Notes under the pieces: generated by a model
What the model was told of the DNA's origin: nothing
The model's database searches: none
What the model saw: the letters and a program-made list of their open reading frames with translations, nothing else
From: an uncultured Chloroflexia bacterium
Lineage (GTDB): Bacteria > Chloroflexota > Limnocylindria > Limnocylindrales > CSP1-4
NCBI GenBank assembly: GCA_963713975.1
Contig: OY970218.1
Location: 1,824,001 to 1,888,000 of the forward strand
Length of the DNA: 64,000 nt
Direction of reading: 5' to 3'
In this document: one piece after another, positions 9,537 to 57,471 of the stretch
Numbering within the stretch: position 1 is the first letter of the stretch
Layout: each line of letters starts with the position of its first letter
Position numbers and translations under genes: made by a program

Positions 9537-9596
9537 GGCCTCCGTACCCACCAGATCGCGGCACGGGCTGCGATCCAGGGGGACTCGATCGACGTC

Positions 9597-9626
9597 ACGG
9601 CCCCGCACTGTTGCGGGGCCGTTTCA
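9597..9626 (+). terminator. Hairpin terminator after the ferredoxin gene
   Basis: ACGGCCCCGCA-ctgt-TGCGGGGCCGT-TTC. Confidence 0.6.
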
Positions 9627-9679
9627 TGTCCGCGGATCCCCGAACGGACCGGGTGACCCGCGGCCCGTAGACTGGCCGG

Positions 9680-18096: not shown

Positions 18097-18224
18097 AAGG
18101 ACGATTGCTCGTCACATCTGGATGCCCGGGAGGTGCCGATGCGGTGGCAGAACCGGCGCCCGGTGCATGGATGTCGTCGGGATTTCCTGTTCGCCACCCA
18201 GTGGGGTGACGAGCAGCTGTCCTT
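18097..18224. other. Long imperfect rod-like inverted repeat (candidate ncRNA or MITE remnant)
   Basis: AAGGAC/GTCCTT and TGCTCGTCAC/GTGACGAGCA terminal pairing plus nested inner stems. Confidence 0.45.
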
Positions 18225-18271
18225 TGGTTAAGCGTCAGGAAGGAGGGCCCGGCCGTCCGCGGGCCCGGCCG

Positions 18272-25753: not shown

Positions 25754-27577
25754 CTAGATCCCGGCGTCGTACGCCTTGGGCAGTGCCTCCACGACCGGCG
25801 CCTTCGTGCGCAGATCCCGCAACGCGGCCTGGTCCATCGAGGCAAGGCGCGGCAGGTCCGCCTGGTTGCTGCGCAGGAGCCGCTCGGTGAGCGTGGACAG
25901 CAGCAGCTTGTTGACTTCGGGGACCTCCATCACCGCGCGCAGAGATTCGGCCGGAACCTCCATCAGTGTGCTGGCCTGCGTGGCCACGACGTCCGCCGTG
26001 CGCGGGCTGCCCGTGAGCGCGGCGATCTCCCCGAAGAAGTCGCCGGCGCTCATCGTGGACAGGCCGCGGTAGCCGCCGTCCGGCTCGGGAACACCTGCTG
26101 CGGCCTCGCCGTGGAGGATGAAGTAGGCGGCGGTCGCCTTGTCACCGTGCGTAACCAGCCGGGCGCCCTCGGGCACCTCGCGGAGCAGCGCGTTCCTGAT
26201 GAAGGCGGCACGCTGCGGGTCGGAGAGACGGGAGAAGGTGGCCAGGTGGCCGACGAGGTGGTCGAAGTCGCCCATCGTGGCCGGTCGGACCTCGCCGGCG
26301 CCAGTCGGAGTGGTGGCGCGCAGGGCAACCAGGCCACGTCGCCACTCCGCGGCCGGGCGACCGACACCCGGTGCCACCAGGGACACGAGGGCCACGACCA
26401 CCAGGATCAACGACGCCGCGATGATCATCGCCCGGATATCGAGGACGTCGGCCAGGCCGGCGGCGGCCATGCCCGCGAGGAAGATCACGTCGCGCATCAC
26501 GAACAGCGCCGAGAACACCCGGCCACGGAGCTCGCGCGGCGTGTGGCGCTGGAGGAGCGTCTGGCGGGCGACGGCGGGGGGCGAGTTGAAGAACCCGCTG
26601 ACCGTCACCCACACGATGGCGATGGTGATGGTCGGCGACAGGCCGTACAGGATTCCGGAGATGCCCATCCCCATCATGCCCACGAAGATCCACAGCCCGA
26701 TCTGTAGTCGGTCGGCGTAGCGGACCATGAACAGGCTGCCGAGCACGAACCCGACGGACGTCAGGCCCTCCTGGATCCCGTACTCGAACTCCGTGCCACC
26801 GAGGACCGTGATCGCCATCGGCAGGAGGAGGACGTTCCACAGGCCGAACGCGAAGAACGCCGGTGCGCCCAGCAGGAACAGGGAGCGCAGCATCGGGGTG
26901 TCCCAGATGGTGCGCACGCCGGTCTTGAGGTTGGCGATCACGACGCCGACCGTGGCCTCTTCGTCCGGGGCCTCCATCTTGACCCGCGTCCTCATGAAGT
27001 AGATGCAGCCCGCCGAGAACACGAACGTGAGCGCGTCGATCCAGAACGCCAGCCGGATGTCGATCGAGGCCAGCAGGCCGGCACCCGCAAAACCGATGGC
27101 CGTGGAGCCGAAGGACGCGATCTGCAGGAAGGCGTTGGCCGCCGTGAGCTCGTCGTCGCTCGCGATCTCCGGGATCAATGCCTCGTAGGCGGGATCGAAG
27201 AACTGCTTGACGCCGGCGTTGACGAGGATGGCCACGAACAGGAGCGCGGCGTTGACACCCAGCAGGAACGGGATGGTCGCCACCACCACGCCCTGAGCGA
27301 GGTTGCTGGCCATCATGACCTTGCGCCGGTCCCAGCGATCCACGAAGACGCCGGCGATGAGGCCGACGACGAGGCTCGGGATGGCCGTGGCCATCAGCGT
27401 GACGCCGACGAGGAACGCCGATCCGGTGACGCTGTAGACGTAGATCCCTGCCGCGAGGTCCGTGAGCGCCGAGCCGGCCGTGGAGACGAGCTGGGCCAGC
27501 CACATCAGGACGAAGTCGGGCTTCTTGAACACGGCGGTCGACGAGACGTGTGCGTTCACGACGCCGGCTTCACTCAT
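25754..27577 (-). CDS. MFS transporter (DHA3/MefA-like) fused to a C-terminal cyclic-nucleotide-binding domain
   Basis: Motif A GVFVDRWDRRKVM; about 12 TMs; CNB motif GDFFGEIAALTGSPRTADV. Confidence 0.92.
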   Translation of the reverse strand: MSEAGVVNAHVSSTAVFKKPDFVLMWLAQLVSTAGSALTDLAAGIYVYSVTGSAFLVGVTLMATAIPSLVVGLIAGVFVDRWDRRKVMMASNLAQGVVVATIPFLLGVNAALLFVAILVNAGVKQFFDPAYEALIPEIASDDELTAANAFLQIASFGSTAIGFAGAGLLASIDIRLAFWIDALTFVFSAGCIYFMRTRVKMEAPDEEATVGVVIANLKTGVRTIWDTPMLRSLFLLGAPAFFAFGLWNVLLLPMAITVLGGTEFEYGIQEGLTSVGFVLGSLFMVRYADRLQIGLWIFVGMMGMGISGILYGLSPTITIAIVWVTVSGFFNSPPAVARQTLLQRHTPRELRGRVFSALFVMRDVIFLAGMAAAGLADVLDIRAMIIAASLILVVVALVSLVAPGVGRPAAEWRRGLVALRATTPTGAGEVRPATMGDFDHLVGHLATFSRLSDPQRAAFIRNALLREVPEGARLVTHGDKATAAYFILHGEAAAGVPEPDGGYRGLSTMSAGDFFGEIAALTGSPRTADVVATQASTLMEVPAESLRAVMEVPEVNKLLLSTLTERLLRSNQADLPRLASMDQAALRDLRTKAPVVEALPKAYDAGI

Positions 27578-27770
27578 CGCCTGACGCCCGCCATCCCCGG
27601 CTCATCCGCCGCCGCATCGATCCTCCCGGTCCGGGTCACGCCCTCCGGCGGCACGGGTCGACCCTGGGCAGGATCCCGGACGCGAGGACAGGCGCGCAGT
27701 GTACGACGCCCGACCGCTAGGATTCGCCCGTGTCCCGCACGAGTCGGGAGCCCGGCATGGAGGCACGGCG

Positions 27771-28556
27771 ATGAGCGATCCGCGCGACGCGGTCATCCTG
27801 CACGCGCTCGAGGAGGTCGCCGTGCGGGCGGCCGCCGCTGGCCGCCTGGAGCCCGCCGGCGGCGACGCCGTCCTGCGTTCCGTGGTCGAGGTGGCCGTCG
27901 CGGTGTTTGACGCGGCCGCCGCCTCCATCGCGCTTCACGATCCCGCGACGGACAGGCTGGTCATCCGGGTCGCGGCGGGGCCGGCAGGGGCCGGCGCGAT
28001 CGGGCTCACGCTGGCGAGCAGCGAGGGCATCGCCGGCTACGTGTTCACCACGGGCCAGCCGCTCGTCGTCAGCGACGTGACCGCGGACCCGCGCTTCGAC
28101 CGTGCGACGGCCGAGAGCACGGGCTATGTGCCCCGCTCGATCCTCGCCGTCCCCGTGCTCGCCGATGACGGCAGCATCGGGGTGCTCGAGGTGCTCGACG
28201 GCCGGGGGGATGCGGGTTTCGGGCTCCGGGACCTGGACCTGGCCTCCGTGTTCGCGCGGCAGGCCTCCGTCGTTGTCGGGGCGGGGCGCGTCGAGCGGGA
28301 CACCACCGAGCTGGTCCGACGCACGCTCGTGCACCTGGTCGAGGACCCAGATGCCGACGGACTGGCCATCGACGCGGCGGTGGCAGCGATCGCGGCCGGC
28401 CTGGATGGCGACGAGGGTGCCCAGCTCTGGGCACTGGCCGATGCCGTCGCCCGCGCACGACGTGCCGCGCCGGACCAGGTGGCGCTCGTCGTGGAGATCC
28501 TCGACGCGCTGGCCCGTCGCGCCCCGAGGTCCGGAGCGAGGACCCTGCGCCGGTGA
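27771..28556 (+). CDS. GAF-domain protein
   Basis: EGIAGYVFTTGQP, DPRF, SILAVP, GVLEVLD; GGAGG RBS. Confidence 0.88.
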   Translation: MSDPRDAVILHALEEVAVRAAAAGRLEPAGGDAVLRSVVEVAVAVFDAAAASIALHDPATDRLVIRVAAGPAGAGAIGLTLASSEGIAGYVFTTGQPLVVSDVTADPRFDRATAESTGYVPRSILAVPVLADDGSIGVLEVLDGRGDAGFGLRDLDLASVFARQASVVVGAGRVERDTTELVRRTLVHLVEDPDADGLAIDAAVAAIAAGLDGDEGAQLWALADAVARARRAAPDQVALVVEILDALARRAPRSGARTLRR

Positions 28557-29368
28557 CGACCGACCTTCCCGCCTGGAGCGAGCCCTTCCTGATCGACAGG
28601 CGCGACGAGCTCGTCCGCCGCGGGCCCTGGGGCAGGGTGGACCGGACCTGGGCCTTCGGCGACGGCCTCGGGCGGGGACTGCGGGTCGCCGTCGTGGATT
28701 CCGGCGTGGAGGGATCCCACCCGGCACTGGGCGGCTCGCTCGTCCGGAGCGTGGCCGTGGAGCGGGACGGCGACGACTGGGAGGTCGTCGAGGTCGATGG
28801 CATCGATGTCGTCGGTCATGGGACGGCCAGCGCGGGGATCATCCACGCCCTGGTCCCCGAGGCGGAGCTGGTGTCGGTTCGCGTCCTCGGGCCGGACAAC
28901 CGCGGCAACGGGGGCGCGTTCGCCCGGGGCCTCCAGTGGGCCGTGGAGGCGTCGGGCGCCTCGGTCGTCAACCTCTCGCTGTCGTCCCGGAGCGATGCCT
29001 TCTTCGGGCAGCTCCACGAGCAGGCGGACCTCGCCTACTTCCGGAACGTGCTGCTCGTGTGTGCCGCCAACAACGCGTCCGTCGCCAGCTACCCGTCCCT
29101 GTTCGCGTCCGTCGTCTCCGTCGCGGCCCATGACGTGCCGAGCGCCGAGACCTGGTTCTACAACCCGGCCCCGCCCGTGGAGTTCGGGGCGTATGGGCTG
29201 AACGTGGACGTCGCGTGGCGCGGCGGGACGCGGATGGTGGTCACGGGCAACAGCTTCGCGGCGCCGCACATCGCCGGGTACGCGGCGCGGATCAGGAGCG
29301 CCCATCCCGGTCTCACGCCGTTCGAGACGAAGTCGATCCTGGCGGCCACCGCGGACAACGCGCGGTAG
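28553..29368 (+). CDS. Subtilisin-family (S8) serine peptidase, minimal, no signal peptide
   Basis: Triad VAVVDSG / GHGT / GNSFAAP, oxyanion AANN; GTGA coupling to the GAF gene. Confidence 0.92.
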   Translation: MTTDLPAWSEPFLIDRRDELVRRGPWGRVDRTWAFGDGLGRGLRVAVVDSGVEGSHPALGGSLVRSVAVERDGDDWEVVEVDGIDVVGHGTASAGIIHALVPEAELVSVRVLGPDNRGNGGAFARGLQWAVEASGASVVNLSLSSRSDAFFGQLHEQADLAYFRNVLLVCAANNASVASYPSLFASVVSVAAHDVPSAETWFYNPAPPVEFGAYGLNVDVAWRGGTRMVVTGNSFAAPHIAGYAARIRSAHPGLTPFETKSILAATADNAR

Positions 29369-29385
29369 GCGGGCTGGAATCGAAA

Positions 29386-29826: not shown

Positions 29827-30399
29827 TCACACCGCAGGTGTCGGCTTGACGACACCCTCGAGGGCGAGCAGCTCGCGCTTGACGGCCAGCGCCGCCTCGC
29901 GCCCGCCGAACGCGGCCACGCCGTACCCGCCCAGCGAGCCGTCACCCGCGATCACGCGATGGCACGGGATGAGCAGCCCGACCGGGTTGCGCCCCACGGC
30001 CCCACCGACCGCACGGGCCGCACCGGTTCTGCCGATCCGCCGCGCCACCTCGCCGTACGAGACGGTCTCGCCGCGGGGGATCGCGCGCACGGCGCCCAGG
30101 ACCAGGCGGTCCCATGCGGGCCGGTCGTCGATGTCGATCGGCAGGCTGCCCATGTCGACCGGCAGCCCATCGAGCATCCGGCGGATTGCCTCGGCCGCCC
30201 CGGCCGCGAGCTCCGCAGCCGGCGGCCCGGCGCGCTCCGGCGCGACCACGATCCCCCGTCGCGAGAGCCCGGCCAGGAACCCCTCTGCCGTTGAGAGCAG
30301 TCCGACGGCCGTCACGCCTCGGGGGGTGGCCGCCACGTGCACCGGCCCCCAGCCGGAAGCGACGTCGATCAGCGCAGCGTATGCATAGAACGTATTCAC
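29827..30399 (-). CDS. ogt: Methylated-DNA--protein-cysteine methyltransferase
   Basis: SYGEVA, ARAVGGAVGRNP, IPCHRV active site. Confidence 0.92.
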   Translation of the reverse strand: MNTFYAYAALIDVASGWGPVHVAATPRGVTAVGLLSTAEGFLAGLSRRGIVVAPERAGPPAAELAAGAAEAIRRMLDGLPVDMGSLPIDIDDRPAWDRLVLGAVRAIPRGETVSYGEVARRIGRTGAARAVGGAVGRNPVGLLIPCHRVIAGDGSLGGYGVAAFGGREAALAVKRELLALEGVVKPTPAV

Positions 30400-30409
30400 G
30401 TTGGAATAG

Positions 30410-30438
30410 TTGCACAGGCCGCGATGCCACGGCATACT
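30410..30438 (+). promoter_or_regulatory. Sigma70-type promoter for the dap leader
   Basis: TTGCAC-17 nt-CATACT. Confidence 0.6.
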
Positions 30439-30447
30439 GCCGGCGTC

Positions 30448-30531
30448 ATGTCGCACCACACCCTCGTCACGTTCGACGCCAGGAAGAAGCCTTGGCGGCC
30501 CAGCCGGAAGGCTCGGGCCCAGGGGCTCTGA
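30448..30531 (+). CDS. Putative lysine leader peptide MSHHTLVTFDARKKPWRPSRKARAQGL
   Basis: Lys codons AAG AAG and AAG, between the promoter and a terminator upstream of dapB. Confidence 0.55.
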   Translation: MSHHTLVTFDARKKPWRPSRKARAQGL

Positions 30532-30581
30532 CGGCGCGCGAGCGACGAGCACGGAGCCTCCGGGACCGGAGGCGCCGAAGG

Positions 30582-30617
30582 GGCCGCGATCACCACGAGC
30601 GGTGATGCGGCCTTTGT
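30582..30617 (+). terminator. Attenuator-type terminator before dapB
   Basis: GGCCGC-g-ATCACC-acgagc-GGTGAT-GCGGCC-TTTGT. Confidence 0.7.
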
Positions 30618-30671
30618 GATTCCCAGGCCTCCGCAACCGCGGCTCCCGACCAAGGAAGGGACGCCCGGATC

Positions 30672-31424
30672 ATGCGCATCCTGATCTACGGACCCGGCCG
30701 CCTGGGTGGCGCGATCGCCCATGCCGCCACCGGTGCGGGCTGGGCGGTCGACGTCATCGGCCGACCTGCGGCGGGCGGGGCCAGGACCCGGCCCCCCGTC
30801 GCGGACGTGGTCGTGGAGGCGTCCAGCGGCCCGTCGGTCGCCGCGAACCTCGAGCACGCTCTCGAGGCCGGCAACCGGTCGTTCGTTCTGGCCACCAGCG
30901 CCTGGGATGCGGACCTGCCGCGGGTGCGGGCGCTGCTGCTGGGCCATGGCGCCGCGGCGGTCATTGCGCCGAACCTGGCGCTGGGCGCTGCACTGTTCCT
31001 GCGCGTCGTCGAGACCGCCGCGGCCATGTATGGACGGGCCGGTGGGTTCGAGCCCTCGGTGGTCGAGTGGCACCGCCGCGGCAAGGCGGACCGGCCGTCC
31101 GGCACGGCCCGCACGATCGCGCGTCGGATCTCGGAGGCGGATCCGCGCTGGGCGGTGGCGGACGTCGCGGACGACCCCCGCCCGGCGCTCGAGATCGCGG
31201 GGATCCGTGCCGGAGCGGCTCCGGGGACCCACCTCGTGACCTTCGACGGCCCCGGTGAATCAGTGGAGCTGCGGCTGACGGCACGTGACCGCGCCGCCTA
31301 TGCCGACGGGGCTCTCGCAGCAGTGCGCTGGCTCGCCCGGGAGCCCCGTGGTCCCGGTTTCCACCCGTTCGACGCCGTCGTGGACGACCTCCTCGCGGCA
31401 TCGCCGATAGCCATTCCGGCCTGA
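30672..31424 (+). CDS. dapB: 4-hydroxy-tetrahydrodipicolinate reductase
   Basis: GPGRLG, EWHRRGKADRPSGTA; operon context. Confidence 0.85.
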   Translation: MRILIYGPGRLGGAIAHAATGAGWAVDVIGRPAAGGARTRPPVADVVVEASSGPSVAANLEHALEAGNRSFVLATSAWDADLPRVRALLLGHGAAAVIAPNLALGAALFLRVVETAAAMYGRAGGFEPSVVEWHRRGKADRPSGTARTIARRISEADPRWAVADVADDPRPALEIAGIRAGAAPGTHLVTFDGPGESVELRLTARDRAAYADGALAAVRWLAREPRGPGFHPFDAVVDDLLAASPIAIPA

Positions 31425-31455: not shown

Positions 31456-32445
31456 ATGACCCGCCTGACCCCCGCCATCGCCCCCGAGCCTGACCGGCCC
31501 ACGCCACGGCTGCGTGGCGCCTTCACGGCCCTGGTCACCCCCTTCACCGCCGCCGGCGACGTCGACGAGGCCGCCTACCGCCGCCTCGTCACGTGGCAGC
31601 TGCTGGCGGGCATCGACGGCCTCGTCCCGGTCGGGACCACGGGTGAGTCACCCACGCTGTCCGCCGCGGAACGGGACCGGTGCATCGAGATCGCGGTGAC
31701 GGCCGCTGCAGAACACGGTGGCCGCATCCCCGTCATCGCCGGTACCGGCTCCAACGACACGCGGTCCTCGATCGAAGCGACCCGGCGCGCTGCGGCCCTC
31801 GGCGCAGACGCCGCGCTGATCGTGACGCCGTACTACAACAAGCCCGACCAGCGGATGCTCGACGCCCACTTCCGGGCGATCGCCGATGACGGTGACCTGC
31901 CGATCGTGGTCTACAACGTGCCGGGCCGGACTGGCGCCAACGTGGAGGCCGAGACGTTCCTGCGGCTCGCGGAGCACCCGCGCGTGATCGCGGTCAAGGA
32001 GGCGAGCGCCAACATCGAGCAGATCGCTGTCATCTGCCGGGATCGACCACGGGACGTGGCCGTGCTCTCGGGCGACGACGCCGCGACGCTGGCCGTCCTG
32101 GCGATGGGCGGCGACGGCGTCATCTCCGTGGCGGGTAACCAGGTGCCGGGCGAGGTTGCGGCGATGGTCGCGGCCGCGCTCGCCGGCCGCTGGAAGGAGG
32201 CACGGACGCTCCACGAGCGCTACCTGCAGCTGTTCCGAGCCAACTTCCAGGGTGCCCCGAACCCCGTGCCCGCGAAGGCGGCGATGCTGGCGATGGGCCT
32301 GCTCGAGGACGACACGCTGCGCGCTCCACTGCTGCCCCTTGCGCCGCCGCCGCGGGAGTGCCTCACGGCTCTCCTGCGGGGGCTTGGGCTCGTCGACGGC
32401 GGCGGGCGCGAGCCGGTCGCGGCCCAGGCAGAGGCGGCCGCATGA
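31456..32445 (+). CDS. dapA: 4-hydroxy-tetrahydrodipicolinate synthase
   Basis: GTTGESPTL, PYYNKP, YNVPGRTG, KEAS, SGDD. Confidence 0.95.
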   Translation: MTRLTPAIAPEPDRPTPRLRGAFTALVTPFTAAGDVDEAAYRRLVTWQLLAGIDGLVPVGTTGESPTLSAAERDRCIEIAVTAAAEHGGRIPVIAGTGSNDTRSSIEATRRAAALGADAALIVTPYYNKPDQRMLDAHFRAIADDGDLPIVVYNVPGRTGANVEAETFLRLAEHPRVIAVKEASANIEQIAVICRDRPRDVAVLSGDDAATLAVLAMGGDGVISVAGNQVPGEVAAMVAAALAGRWKEARTLHERYLQLFRANFQGAPNPVPAKAAMLAMGLLEDDTLRAPLLPLAPPPRECLTALLRGLGLVDGGGREPVAAQAEAAA

Positions 32446-33224
32446 GCGAGGACGCGACCGCGGCCGCCCCGATCCTGGGCGACCTCGACGCGGGGCAACG
32501 CCGGGCGGCCGTCCCGGATCCCGACGTGCCGGGCGGCTGGAGGACCGACCCGGAGGTCAAAGCCGAGATCCTGGCCTGCTTCCGGGACCGTGAGACGGCC
32601 ACCTGGGACCTGGGCGGCGTGCTGCGGTTTCGGGACCGCGTCGGGCTCCCCGTCAAGGACCTGACCGAAGGCCCGTGGCGCATTGTCCCCGGCGGGACCT
32701 CTGTTCGGGCCGGCGTCTACCTGGGCCCGGGCGTCGTGGTCATGCCGCCGTCGTTCGTCAACGTCGGTGCGTGGATCGGCGAGGACACCATGGTGGACTC
32801 GCACGTGCTCGTGGGTTCGTGCGCCCAGATCGGTGCCAGGGTCCACCTCTCTGCGGGCGTCACCATCGGTGGGGTCCTGGAGCCGGCCGGCGCGCGCCCC
32901 GTGATCGTGGAGGACGATGCGTTCGTGGGCGCCGGCAGCTCGCTCCTCGAAGGCGTGCTGGTGGGCGGGGGAGCCGTCATCGGGGCGGGCGTGTTCCTGA
33001 CCGGAACCTCGCGCCTGTACGACCTGGTTCGCGGACGCGTGCTGACGGGCACGCCCGGGGAACCCCTCGCCGTTCCGCCGGGTGCCGTGGTGGTTCCCGG
33101 GTCGCGTACCCTCGGCGGGGAGTTTGCCGCGGCCAACGGCCTGGCCGTCTCCGTGGCGCTCCTGGTCAAGGACCGCGACGCCGGGACGGACGCCCGGGTC
33201 GCCCTGGAGGATGCGCTGCGATGA
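32442..33224 (+). CDS. dapD: Tetrahydrodipicolinate N-succinyltransferase
   Basis: MPPSFVNVGA, VGSCAQIG..VHLSAGV.IGGVLEP hexapeptide repeats. Confidence 0.92.
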   Translation: MSEDATAAAPILGDLDAGQRRAAVPDPDVPGGWRTDPEVKAEILACFRDRETATWDLGGVLRFRDRVGLPVKDLTEGPWRIVPGGTSVRAGVYLGPGVVVMPPSFVNVGAWIGEDTMVDSHVLVGSCAQIGARVHLSAGVTIGGVLEPAGARPVIVEDDAFVGAGSSLLEGVLVGGGAVIGAGVFLTGTSRLYDLVRGRVLTGTPGEPLAVPPGAVVVPGSRTLGGEFAAANGLAVSVALLVKDRDAGTDARVALEDALR

Positions 33225-34534
33225 ACCAGGTCCTGCGCGACGGACGGCTCGGCGGGCACGACCCGTTCGAGCTTGCCGGCCGCTTCGGGACGCCGTTCTA
33301 TGCCTACGATCTCGACGTCGTCACGGGCAAGGCCGACGCCCTCCGCGCGATCCTGCCCGGGACCTTCGATCTCGCCTACGCGGCCAAGGCCAATCCCAAC
33401 CTCGCCGTCCTGCGCCATCTCCAGGGGCTTGGCCTCGGAGCCGACGTCGCGTCCGGCGGCGAGTTGCGCCACGTCCTGCGAGCCGGGTTCGCTCCGGATC
33501 GGGTCGTGTTCACCGGACCCGGCAAGCGCGACGAGGAGCTCGAGGCGGCCGTCCGGACGGGCGTCGGGATCATCACGGTGGAGTCGCGCGGGGAGCTGCG
33601 GCGGCTCATGGCCATCGCCGAATCGCTAGGCCGCCGCCAACCGATCCTGCTGCGGGCCGCCCTGTCCGAGCCCGCCGCAACCGAGCGCGCCGGGCTCGGG
33701 CGGGCGAGCGCCCCCGGCGTGGGCATCACGGGCAAGTTCGGGATGGACGCGGAGGATCTCGTCGGGGCCGCTGCAGAGGCGGTCGCGTCGCCCTGGCTGG
33801 AGCCGCTGGGCATCCACGCGTTCGGCGCGTCCAACGTGACCGACGCGGCGGCCCTGGCGAAGCACGTGGAATCCACCGTCGAGACCGCGATCGCCGTCGC
33901 GGAGACGGCAGGTTTCGAGCTGCGCCTTGTCGATGTGGGCGGGGGACTTGGGATCCCCTACGCGGACGGCGACCCGGAGCTCGATCTCCGGTCGCTGGGC
34001 GTGTGCCTCGCCCGCCTCGCCGACCGGCTGGCGGCCTCTCCAGCCACGCGCTCCGTGCGTGTGCTGTTCGAACCGGGACGGTTCCTCGTCGGCGCATCAG
34101 GGGTGTTCGTCGCCCGGGTCGTCGATCGCAAGATGATCGATGGCCACCCGGTCGCGATCCTGGACGGCGGCATCAACCACGTGCTTCGCCCGGTCCTGGT
34201 CGGCCGGGAGCAGCGCGTTGTCATGCTCACGGGGGCCGGCTCAGAGGCGGCACCCGGCTCGGTATCGGCATCCCCGGTCATGATCGCGGGCCCTCTGTGC
34301 ACCGGGCTTGACGTGTTCGCCCAGGCCGCCGCCATCGTCCCGCCCGATCCCGGCGACCTCGTCGCGGTCCTCGATGTCGGGGCCTACGGAGCAAGCGAAT
34401 CGATGCCGTTCTTCCTCTCCCACCCGCTGCCGCCCGAGATCGTGCTCCAGGGCGGCGAGGCCTGGGTGGCGCGCCGGCGGATCGATCCGGACACGTGGCT
34501 CGAGTGGCAGGAGGGCGAGCCACCCGGGGCATAA
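33221..34534 (+). CDS. lysA: Diaminopimelate decarboxylase (fold-type III PLP)
   Basis: YAAKAN, DVASGGE, KFG, DVGGG, EPGRFLV, GPLC, GAYG; ends the dap operon. Confidence 0.8.
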   Translation: MNQVLRDGRLGGHDPFELAGRFGTPFYAYDLDVVTGKADALRAILPGTFDLAYAAKANPNLAVLRHLQGLGLGADVASGGELRHVLRAGFAPDRVVFTGPGKRDEELEAAVRTGVGIITVESRGELRRLMAIAESLGRRQPILLRAALSEPAATERAGLGRASAPGVGITGKFGMDAEDLVGAAAEAVASPWLEPLGIHAFGASNVTDAAALAKHVESTVETAIAVAETAGFELRLVDVGGGLGIPYADGDPELDLRSLGVCLARLADRLAASPATRSVRVLFEPGRFLVGASGVFVARVVDRKMIDGHPVAILDGGINHVLRPVLVGREQRVVMLTGAGSEAAPGSVSASPVMIAGPLCTGLDVFAQAAAIVPPDPGDLVAVLDVGAYGASESMPFFLSHPLPPEIVLQGGEAWVARRRIDPDTWLEWQEGEPPGA

Positions 34535-57032: not shown

Positions 57033-57138
57033 CGGGGTTGTGGTCGAGGGGGCGCGCGGGAGCCATGAGGGCCCGGGTGTTGCGCCTCGACCCCGACTAC
57101 CGCTATCCTTCGCGCACCCGTCAGCACGGACGGGCCCA

Positions 57139-57372
57139 ATGGAGTCGGGTCGCTTGGACTTCTTCCAGGGTCGCAACCGCAGCCGCGTCGCCGTCATCGT
57201 GACGTCCGATGGTCGCCGCGTCACCGTGCCCCTGCGCGACCTCGAGCCCCAGGGCGTATCCCCCCTCGACCTTATTCGCTCGCTCCTGGCCGGCCTTGAG
57301 AGCCTTCTTGGCCTCCTCATTACCGGCTCCCGGCGGGAGAACGGAGGAACGCGGAGGGACGGACGCCACTGA
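57139..57372 (+). CDS. Putative ilv/leu leader peptide (77 aa, Ile/Leu/Val-rich)
   Basis: VAVIV and LDLIRSLLAGLESLLGLLI runs using rare CTT/ATT codons; terminator follows. Confidence 0.55.
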   Translation: MESGRLDFFQGRNRSRVAVIVTSDGRRVTVPLRDLEPQGVSPLDLIRSLLAGLESLLGLLITGSRRENGGTRRDGRH

Positions 57373-57396
57373 GGCGCCGCCACCGAGAACCAAAGG

Positions 57397-57425
57397 GACC
57401 CTCGCCGGGTGGCGAGGGTCTTTGT
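57397..57425 (+). terminator. Attenuator-type terminator before ilvB
   Basis: GACCCTCGCC-gggt-GGCGAGGGTC-TTTGT. Confidence 0.8.
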
Positions 57426-57471
57426 ATGTCCGGCGGTCGCGGGACCGGCGGACGGAGGGATCTGAGCGGAC

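Follow-up and report, generated by a model that had tools for sequence, protein, structure and literature searches.

The dapB leader and its neighbourhood

The window (the whole 64 kb stretch of DNA analysed here) carries dapB, dapA, dapD and a lysA-like gene in a row, preceded by a leader with its own promoter. The features of the locus are listed below.

29827..30399, minus strand: ogt-like methylated-DNA-protein-cysteine methyltransferase gene (putative start; exceeds the TIGR00589 cut-off)
30410..30438, plus strand: promoter, -35 TTGCAC (30410-30415), 17-nt spacer, -10 CATACT (30433-30438)
30448..30531, plus strand: near-leaderless leader ORF of 27 codons, ATG at 30448, TGA ending at 30531
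30481..30489, plus strand: putative control codons AGG-AAG-AAG (AAG-AAG-AAG in the family consensus, with an invariant last Lys)
30487..30520, plus strand: segment 1 and in-ORF hairpin (predicted protector, 1:2); contains segment B (30495-30501), the predicted antiterminator strand
30523..30528, plus strand: segment C2, the last two codons; predicted partner is segment 1 (off) or the 5' arm of hairpin E (on)
30535..30544, plus strand: invariant 3-bp hairpin with a GCGA/GCAA tetraloop
30554..30573, plus strand: hairpin E, predicted relay; in the on state its 5' arm would pair with C2 and its 3' arm with G1
30580..30621, plus strand: putative terminator hairpin F and tail UUUGUGAUU (5 U of 8 in the tail)
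30616..30674, plus strand: tail, G1 (30628-30634), a hairpin, dapB SD sequence (30652-30659) and ATG, predicted to form an RBS-sequestering fold
30672..31424, plus strand: dapB (divergent; under the TIGR00036 cut-off)
31456..32445, plus strand: dapA (exceeds the TIGR00674 cut-off)
32436..33224, plus strand: dapD (exceeds the NF008808 cut-off)
33221..34534, plus strand: lysA-like PLP decarboxylase gene (TIGR01048, 260 bits vs cut-off 298; assigned by operon position)

The dapB and lysA identities lean partly on context because both score under the curated cut-offs. The lysA-like protein scores slightly higher with TIGR03099 (282 bits) than with the lysA model, and both matches are below their cut-offs. 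No match to lysC, asd, dapC, dapE or dapF was found among the scanned ORFs of the 64 kb window. The ogt-like gene is a divergent neighbour outside the switch. It lies upstream of the leader in 52 of 61 homologous loci, in which the operon order is also kept, with dapA in 60/61, dapD in 57/61 and the lysA-like gene in 53/61. At 25754-29368 an MFS transporter is fused to a cyclic-nucleotide-binding domain and adjoins a GAF protein and a small subtilase; this trio is present again in about one third of the loci.

The 61 loci were retrieved from GTDB genomes via an alignment of 50 of the at least 120 DapB matches listed. The patterns for the genome scan came from the DapB family, and the spread of the leader was thus assessed within the lineage of that family. 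Fifty-nine of the 61 records are labelled Chloroflexota (eight of these Limnocylindrales), and two genomes contribute two loci each. The leader was found at 60 of the 61 loci, the remaining one (L045) having no upstream DNA. Alignment A2 consists of the window and 59 loci (60 leaders); L045 was excluded, as was L010 because its 5' end is cut. Two records carrying other labels (L034, beta-proteobacterium; L061, Gaiellaceae) nest within the Chloroflexota tree with the same synteny, and they are more likely mis-binned or mis-labelled than transferred. Conservation of the promoter, the reading frame, the Lys position and the mutually exclusive helices reaches a clade 0.6 substitutions per site away. 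In this deep clade a SAM-I riboswitch is located directly upstream of the Lys leader (L046, 8150-9703; L049, 1-105), and in L046 an ORF that reads as a threonine-synthase-like PLP enzyme is also directly upstream. Neither an ogt nor a lysA match is found nearby in this clade, and the distance from the -10 to the ATG is 6 nt, i.e. fully leaderless. With a sequence-only model of the leader, neither the window nor any of the 61 loci yielded a second copy; two extra matches, one on the reverse strand of a leader and one of 10 bits, were dismissed. A blastn search of plasmids gave only three short, chance-level matches.

The leader ORF and its Lys codons

The promoter of the original prediction, TTGCAC-17-CATACT, lies where it had been placed and is conserved in the relatives. 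All 58 leaders with sufficient upstream DNA have TTGCAN at -35, and 56 of them have a hexamer with A2 and T6 17 nt past it, the spacer sequence being variable. The pattern TTGCAY-17-CANNNT has a single occurrence in the 64 kb window. Neither the promoter nor the terminator was called by a generic scanner, since both deviate from the E. coli-type consensus. A GCAA-N3-TTGC palindrome covers the -35 in 7/58 leaders (L006, L009, L013, L022, L029, L043 and L056), and is possibly a back-to-back ogt promoter or a factor site.

The leader ATG is located nine bases after the -10 in the window and 6-10 nt after it across the leaders (58/58), and an SD-like word before this ATG is absent in 58/58. From the sequence we infer the transcription start site and near-leaderless translation from the 5' end of the transcript. 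The predicted 27-codon near-leaderless ORF with AAG-AAG was confirmed at 30448-30531. Its relatives are 25-28 codons long, and the frame is kept in 59/60 leaders; the sole out-of-frame leader ORF (L057) precedes a dapB that is also frameshifted. At least 10 changes in ORF length map onto the tree, nine by whole codons and the tenth being L057, while the non-coding spacer 3' of the leader stop has 15 lengths in all three phases. Judged by its evolution, the leader ORF is real. Its N-terminus is free in length and sequence. The N-terminal codons of the 60 leaders show no third-position or synonymous excess (the codon-position test was uninformative), and therefore the peptide itself seems loosely constrained. 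It matches no Pfam or NCBIfam family at E up to 10.

The AAG-AAG pair of the window sits at 30484-30489. Lys is encoded at the three cluster positions in 55, 47 and 60 of 60 leaders, respectively; the conservation in relatives on which the original idea depended was found, the Lys codons being kept in frame and position. The last Lys is encoded by AAG in 57 leaders and AAA in three. Two or more cluster Lys are retained in 60/60 leaders. At least 13 changes in the cluster map onto the tree, leaving the last Lys residue unaffected and never fewer than two Lys. The Lys background is 1.3% of 2833 codons in seven genes of the window, and among 251 short ATG ORFs in the window three encode KK or KxK, two of these being the leader ORF itself, counted once for each of its two starts. 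Immediately 5' of the cluster, two codons (30475-30480, plus strand) are constrained to D/E/N followed by A/S/T, with two invariant bases, and R-P after the cluster is well conserved. The third AAG of the original prediction (30508-30510) is present, but it is not a conserved sensor and was rejected as such: this codon is Lys in 34/60 and Glu in 23/60 leaders, with at least 14 changes on the tree. It lies within a mostly GNRA hairpin loop.

Genes of this kind are usually controlled by an L-box, and nucleotide conservation is high over about 170 nt of the leader, as might be expected of a divergent L-box riboswitch or T-box. The ORF would then be a by-product, like the Lys-containing ORF of the Bacillus subtilis lysC leader. 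However, frame and Lys are maintained at the amino-acid level and Rfam scans were negative. No family was found in the 64 kb window at gathering score, the 371-nt region gave only two chance-level matches at E up to 10 (E 1.8 and 6.4), and the leaders of 10 homologous loci gave no match (SAM-I was found in two of these loci). The signature motifs UGGNACC (the T-box bulge) and AGAGGY were each found in 0/60 leaders. The L-box/T-box reading, for which the first inspection had also seen no sign, is already largely refuted and we regard it as very unlikely.

RNA helices, putative terminator and predicted switch

The leader folds with a z-score of -3.1. Hairpins AGCC-ggaa-GGCT and GCCTCCG/CGGAGGC, both described before, can be read directly in the sequence. 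The in-ORF hairpin covaries: at pair 60-67, 45 of the 59 distinct rows have C-G and the other 14 have U-A, with at least four changes on the tree. Pairing of segment B with the 5' arm of the terminator (B:F5') is possible in 59/59 rows (100%) with wobble changes only. C2:E5' is paired in 98.9% of cells and C1:F5' in 99.7%, both with one-sided changes only; no two-sided covariation was found for B:F5' or C2:E5' in the 59 distinct rows. The antiterminator segments are nearly invariant, and therefore these pairs are compatible with the data and not proven by covariation. Near-invariance is also seen in hairpins D and E and in the lower stem of F, which is expected of arms that have two partners. 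E3':G1 shows two pairs with two-sided change, in one row each. In a partner-permutation test the own partners of B:F5' and C2:E5' were no better than those from foreign genomes (p 0.68 and 0.83). The partner-swap test failed its positive control, the upper stem of F (p 0.96), probably due to column misalignment, and is therefore only suggestive. A CGC-GCRA-GCG tetraloop hairpin directly 3' of the leader stop is invariant (60/60). It has no role in either model discussed below and could be a tertiary contact or a protein site. GC-rich RNA yields many chance helices, and one may ask whether the leader is simply an unregulated, constitutively expressed structured region whose ORF arose by chance. 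Since the frame, the Lys position, the promoter and the exclusive helices are kept in all leaders examined, that explanation is barely credible.

A GC hairpin followed by TTTGTGATT is read directly at 30613-30621. A terminator just before dapB had been predicted; the hairpin and the TTTGT tail are there, but 50 nt separate the end of the tail from the dapB ATG, and this spacer is conserved and structured. F is a strong hairpin with 3-6 U of 8 in its tail across the leaders (only 3 in L004). Tails with at least 5 U are not above the base-composition expectation (24 among 11,890 perfect hairpins in 1.16 Mb of loci). The window has 51 TTT runs, and the seven with the strongest upstream hairpins all have 5 U of 8. 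They include F, the ilvB leader hairpin (both strands) and three intergenic GC hairpins at gene ends with UUU-led tails of 5 U of 8.

9592-9630, plus strand: gene-end hairpin (intergenic position 9622)
18175-18230, plus strand: gene-end hairpin (intergenic position 18223)
29385, minus strand: gene-end hairpin (intergenic position 29385)

UUU-led tails with 5 U of 8 probably typify intrinsic terminators in this organism. The F tail is like those of the other hairpins in the window, which supports termination as an output, as seen in one genome.

Folding models with the ribosome at different positions were compared. Before the 3' arm of F is made, free RNA is predicted to have the 1:2 hairpin at a fraction of 0.87 (52/60) and B:F5' at 0.12. 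When the RNA is blocked on its 5' side as far as the Trp codon, the predicted fold becomes a rod that B:F5' closes (0.95). For a ribosome whose 3' footprint is 11 nt, B:F5' is predicted in 49, 59 and 58 of 60 leaders with the cluster codons in the A site, in 9/60 one codon after the cluster and in 0/60 from two codons after. The assumed footprint affects this outcome: at +13, B:F5' falls to 30/60 at the last Lys and at +15 to 0/60, the earlier cluster positions then giving 58-60 and 42-58, and the B:F5' peak moves one or two codons upstream, respectively. Stalls 3-8 codons 5' of the last Lys still give the antiterminator in 25-55 of 60 leaders, and the 5' edge of the effective range is blunt. 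When the RNA ends at the stem base, the antiterminator minus terminator energy is 11.3 kcal/mol in free RNA, 7.9 kcal/mol with the ribosome at the stop, 6.8 kcal/mol at the first Lys and 2.5 kcal/mol at the last Lys. In the window sequence with the last Lys in the A site, the antiterminator lies 0.4 kcal/mol below the terminator. The stall shrinks this gap in 60/60 leaders relative to free RNA and in 52/60 relative to the ribosome at the stop. Even with a ribosome at the stop, the models retain B:F5' (mean 0.61) if the RNA behind it is left unblocked. When three tail bases are added, F forms in all states at equilibrium (0.96-0.99), and therefore kinetics or timing must matter. Timing matters in known attenuators too. 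A classical 2:3 pairing (GGCCC strand, C1:F5') was rejected as the main antiterminator; it is compatible with the sequences, but rarer than B:F5' with the ribosome in the Lys range, and it is a possible back-up antiterminator.

The switch states and their order, as suggested by these models, would be as follows. The near-leaderless ORF would be translated from the 5' end of the transcript. When lysine is scarce, the ribosome would wait at the Lys codons and mask segment 1, leaving C2 to pair with the 5' arm of E and B with the 5' arm of the terminator; the long antiterminator rod so formed would let RNA polymerase continue into dapB. When lysine is plentiful, the ribosome would reach the stop and cover segment C, E and F would form and transcription would end at UUUGUGAUU. 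RNA that is not translated would form the 1:2 hairpin and also terminate. Transcripts that pass F probably have the dapB SD and ATG covered by the tail and G1, an outcome that would be avoided when the 3' arm of E is free and takes G1. The Lys-tRNA attenuator of the original prediction gains support from the predicted stall-dependent antiterminator, which that prediction had not named. We consider a leader-peptide sensor of Lys-tRNA highly probable. A ribosome-dependent attenuator of the trp/his type that senses charged tRNA-Lys, has termination as its output and controls dapB-dapA-dapD-lysA is probable, according to the conservation and the folding models.

The well-conserved D/E/N-A/S/T before the cluster and R-P after it might instead belong to an arrest peptide (TnaC/SpeFL-like), or the RNA might sense lysine itself or an intermediate of the pathway; in either case the Lys codons would be incidental. 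The invariant tetraloop hairpin, to which the attenuator model gives no role, would be in keeping with this. However, the residues after the cluster vary as RNA pairing permits and the N-terminus is free. The predicted stall also turns a biosynthetic operon on and therefore, by pathway logic, fits scarcity of charged tRNA rather than abundance of lysine. An arrest peptide or ligand-binding RNA is thus quite unlikely.

The main rival to the attenuator is translation-only control with the same Lys-codon sensor, in which F is a constant scaffold, the stall is relayed from C2 via E to G1 and uncovers the dapB SD and ATG, much as in the leaderless polycysteine ORFs of mycobacteria, and the downstream genes follow by polarity. 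The presence of F in every state at equilibrium and its weak U tail agree with this, as do the folds of the dapB RBS. The mean cost of opening the RBS is 11.7 kcal/mol with E and F formed and 5.6 kcal/mol with the 3' arm of E free; freeing this arm eases opening in 56/60 leaders and hinders it in three. For tail:SD-spacer and for E3':G1, own partners are superior to those from other genomes (p 1e-4 and p 3e-4, respectively), kinship being uncorrected in these values, and the two-sided changes in E3':G1 point in the same direction. On the other side, L046 and L053 of the deep clade stay closed and the shift in whole-leader folds is modest: G:RBS pairing goes from 0.51-0.59 to 0.26, and from 0.57 to about 0.5 with 12 coding bases. 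RBS switching is absent from the fold of the window's leader itself and from folds with 30 coding bases. Translation-only control also offers no reason why the lower stem of F should be invariant, why the energy of B:F5' should be lowest at the last Lys or why the tail should resemble those of other terminators. We judge it unlikely as the sole output. Next to termination in the preferred attenuator model, a second and less well supported layer, acting on translation at the dapB RBS, is probable though unproven.

A second candidate attenuator (57080-57430, plus strand), with promoter-like TTGCGC...TATCCT, was noticed upstream of ilvB-ilvN-ilvC-leuA.

57139-57372, plus strand: putative ilvB leader ORF, 77 codons, 27% Leu/Ile/Val, with several CTT/ATT codons
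57397-57420, plus strand: perfect hairpin of the ilvB leader with tail TTTGTATG; a further hairpin precedes the SD

The ORF is unusually long for such leaders. With stalls at codons 43-62 the 5' arm of the terminator is predicted to be mostly paired (about 0.88, vs about 0.5 after codon 63). This one genome suggests that attenuation is a habit of the organism, with wider use of leader peptides in the lineage.

Comparison with known leaders

Lysine biosynthesis is a textbook case of riboswitch control, with a lysine-binding RNA switch in most studied bacteria. The L-box and T-box have the same regulatory target and logic as the switch proposed here, in which sensing would need translation. To our knowledge, leader-peptide control by lysine is known only from Thermus, in the aminoadipate pathway. 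Tsubouchi and co-workers (J Biol Chem, 2005) are said to have placed the hcs-lys cluster of Thermus thermophilus under a leader-peptide attenuator. That leader, too, reportedly has a short ORF with tandem Lys codons and controls lysine biosynthesis genes by transcriptional attenuation; it is reported to differ in phylum, in pathway (aminoadipate vs diaminopimelate here) and in size (about 110 nt with 14 codons). This precedent tempers the word "unusual" in the original prediction. The lineage, the pathway and the architecture look new, whereas this kind of attenuator is already known.

E. coli trp/his and Firmicutes His leaders (PMC9413887) have tandem cognate codons and the protector/antiterminator/terminator arrangement predicted here, and PMC9413887 mentions that some attenuators swap the terminator for an RBS-sequestering structure. 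Compared with classical attenuators, the dapB leader has Lys codons, is near-leaderless, has a weak U tail and possibly adds a second layer at the RBS. The strand predicted to act as antiterminator follows directly on the control codons, and the long rod that it closes contains two relay hairpins. The leaderless polycysteine ORFs of mycobacteria sense charged tRNA (bioRxiv 10.1101/834739), as proposed here, and their control by SD availability serves as a model for the second layer. In those ORFs the Cys tract pairs with the SD region and a terminator is not used; the Lys codons here are about 170 nt from the SD and would act via relays. The B. subtilis abrB leader (PMC13733827) likewise uses tandem Lys codons in a short ORF to control the gene that follows; this gene encodes a biofilm regulator rather than lysine biosynthesis enzymes, and the signal is the modification state of tRNA. 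In the open-licence literature searched, neither this element nor any leader-peptide attenuator of a lysine operon was described.

The promoter, the reading frame, the Lys codons and the complementarities are conserved across the leaders. On sequence and folding models, an uncultured soil/freshwater bacterial group appears to switch on its lysine genes by a ribosome stall at Lys codons. We tentatively propose a more complete reading, itself rather doubtful as a whole: throughout the lineage, the diaminopimelate pathway would be under a Lys-tRNA attenuator that evolved independently, and a single stall on the near-leaderless ORF would act on two switches via relay helices, first blocking the terminator and then keeping the dapB RBS open. 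If true, a Lys attenuator of the dap operon in Chloroflexota would be a second, probably independent solution. The 60 natural variants offer a test system, and the leader is a candidate for coupled transcriptional and translational output. It also gives a promoter consensus and a terminator style for a lineage without expression data.
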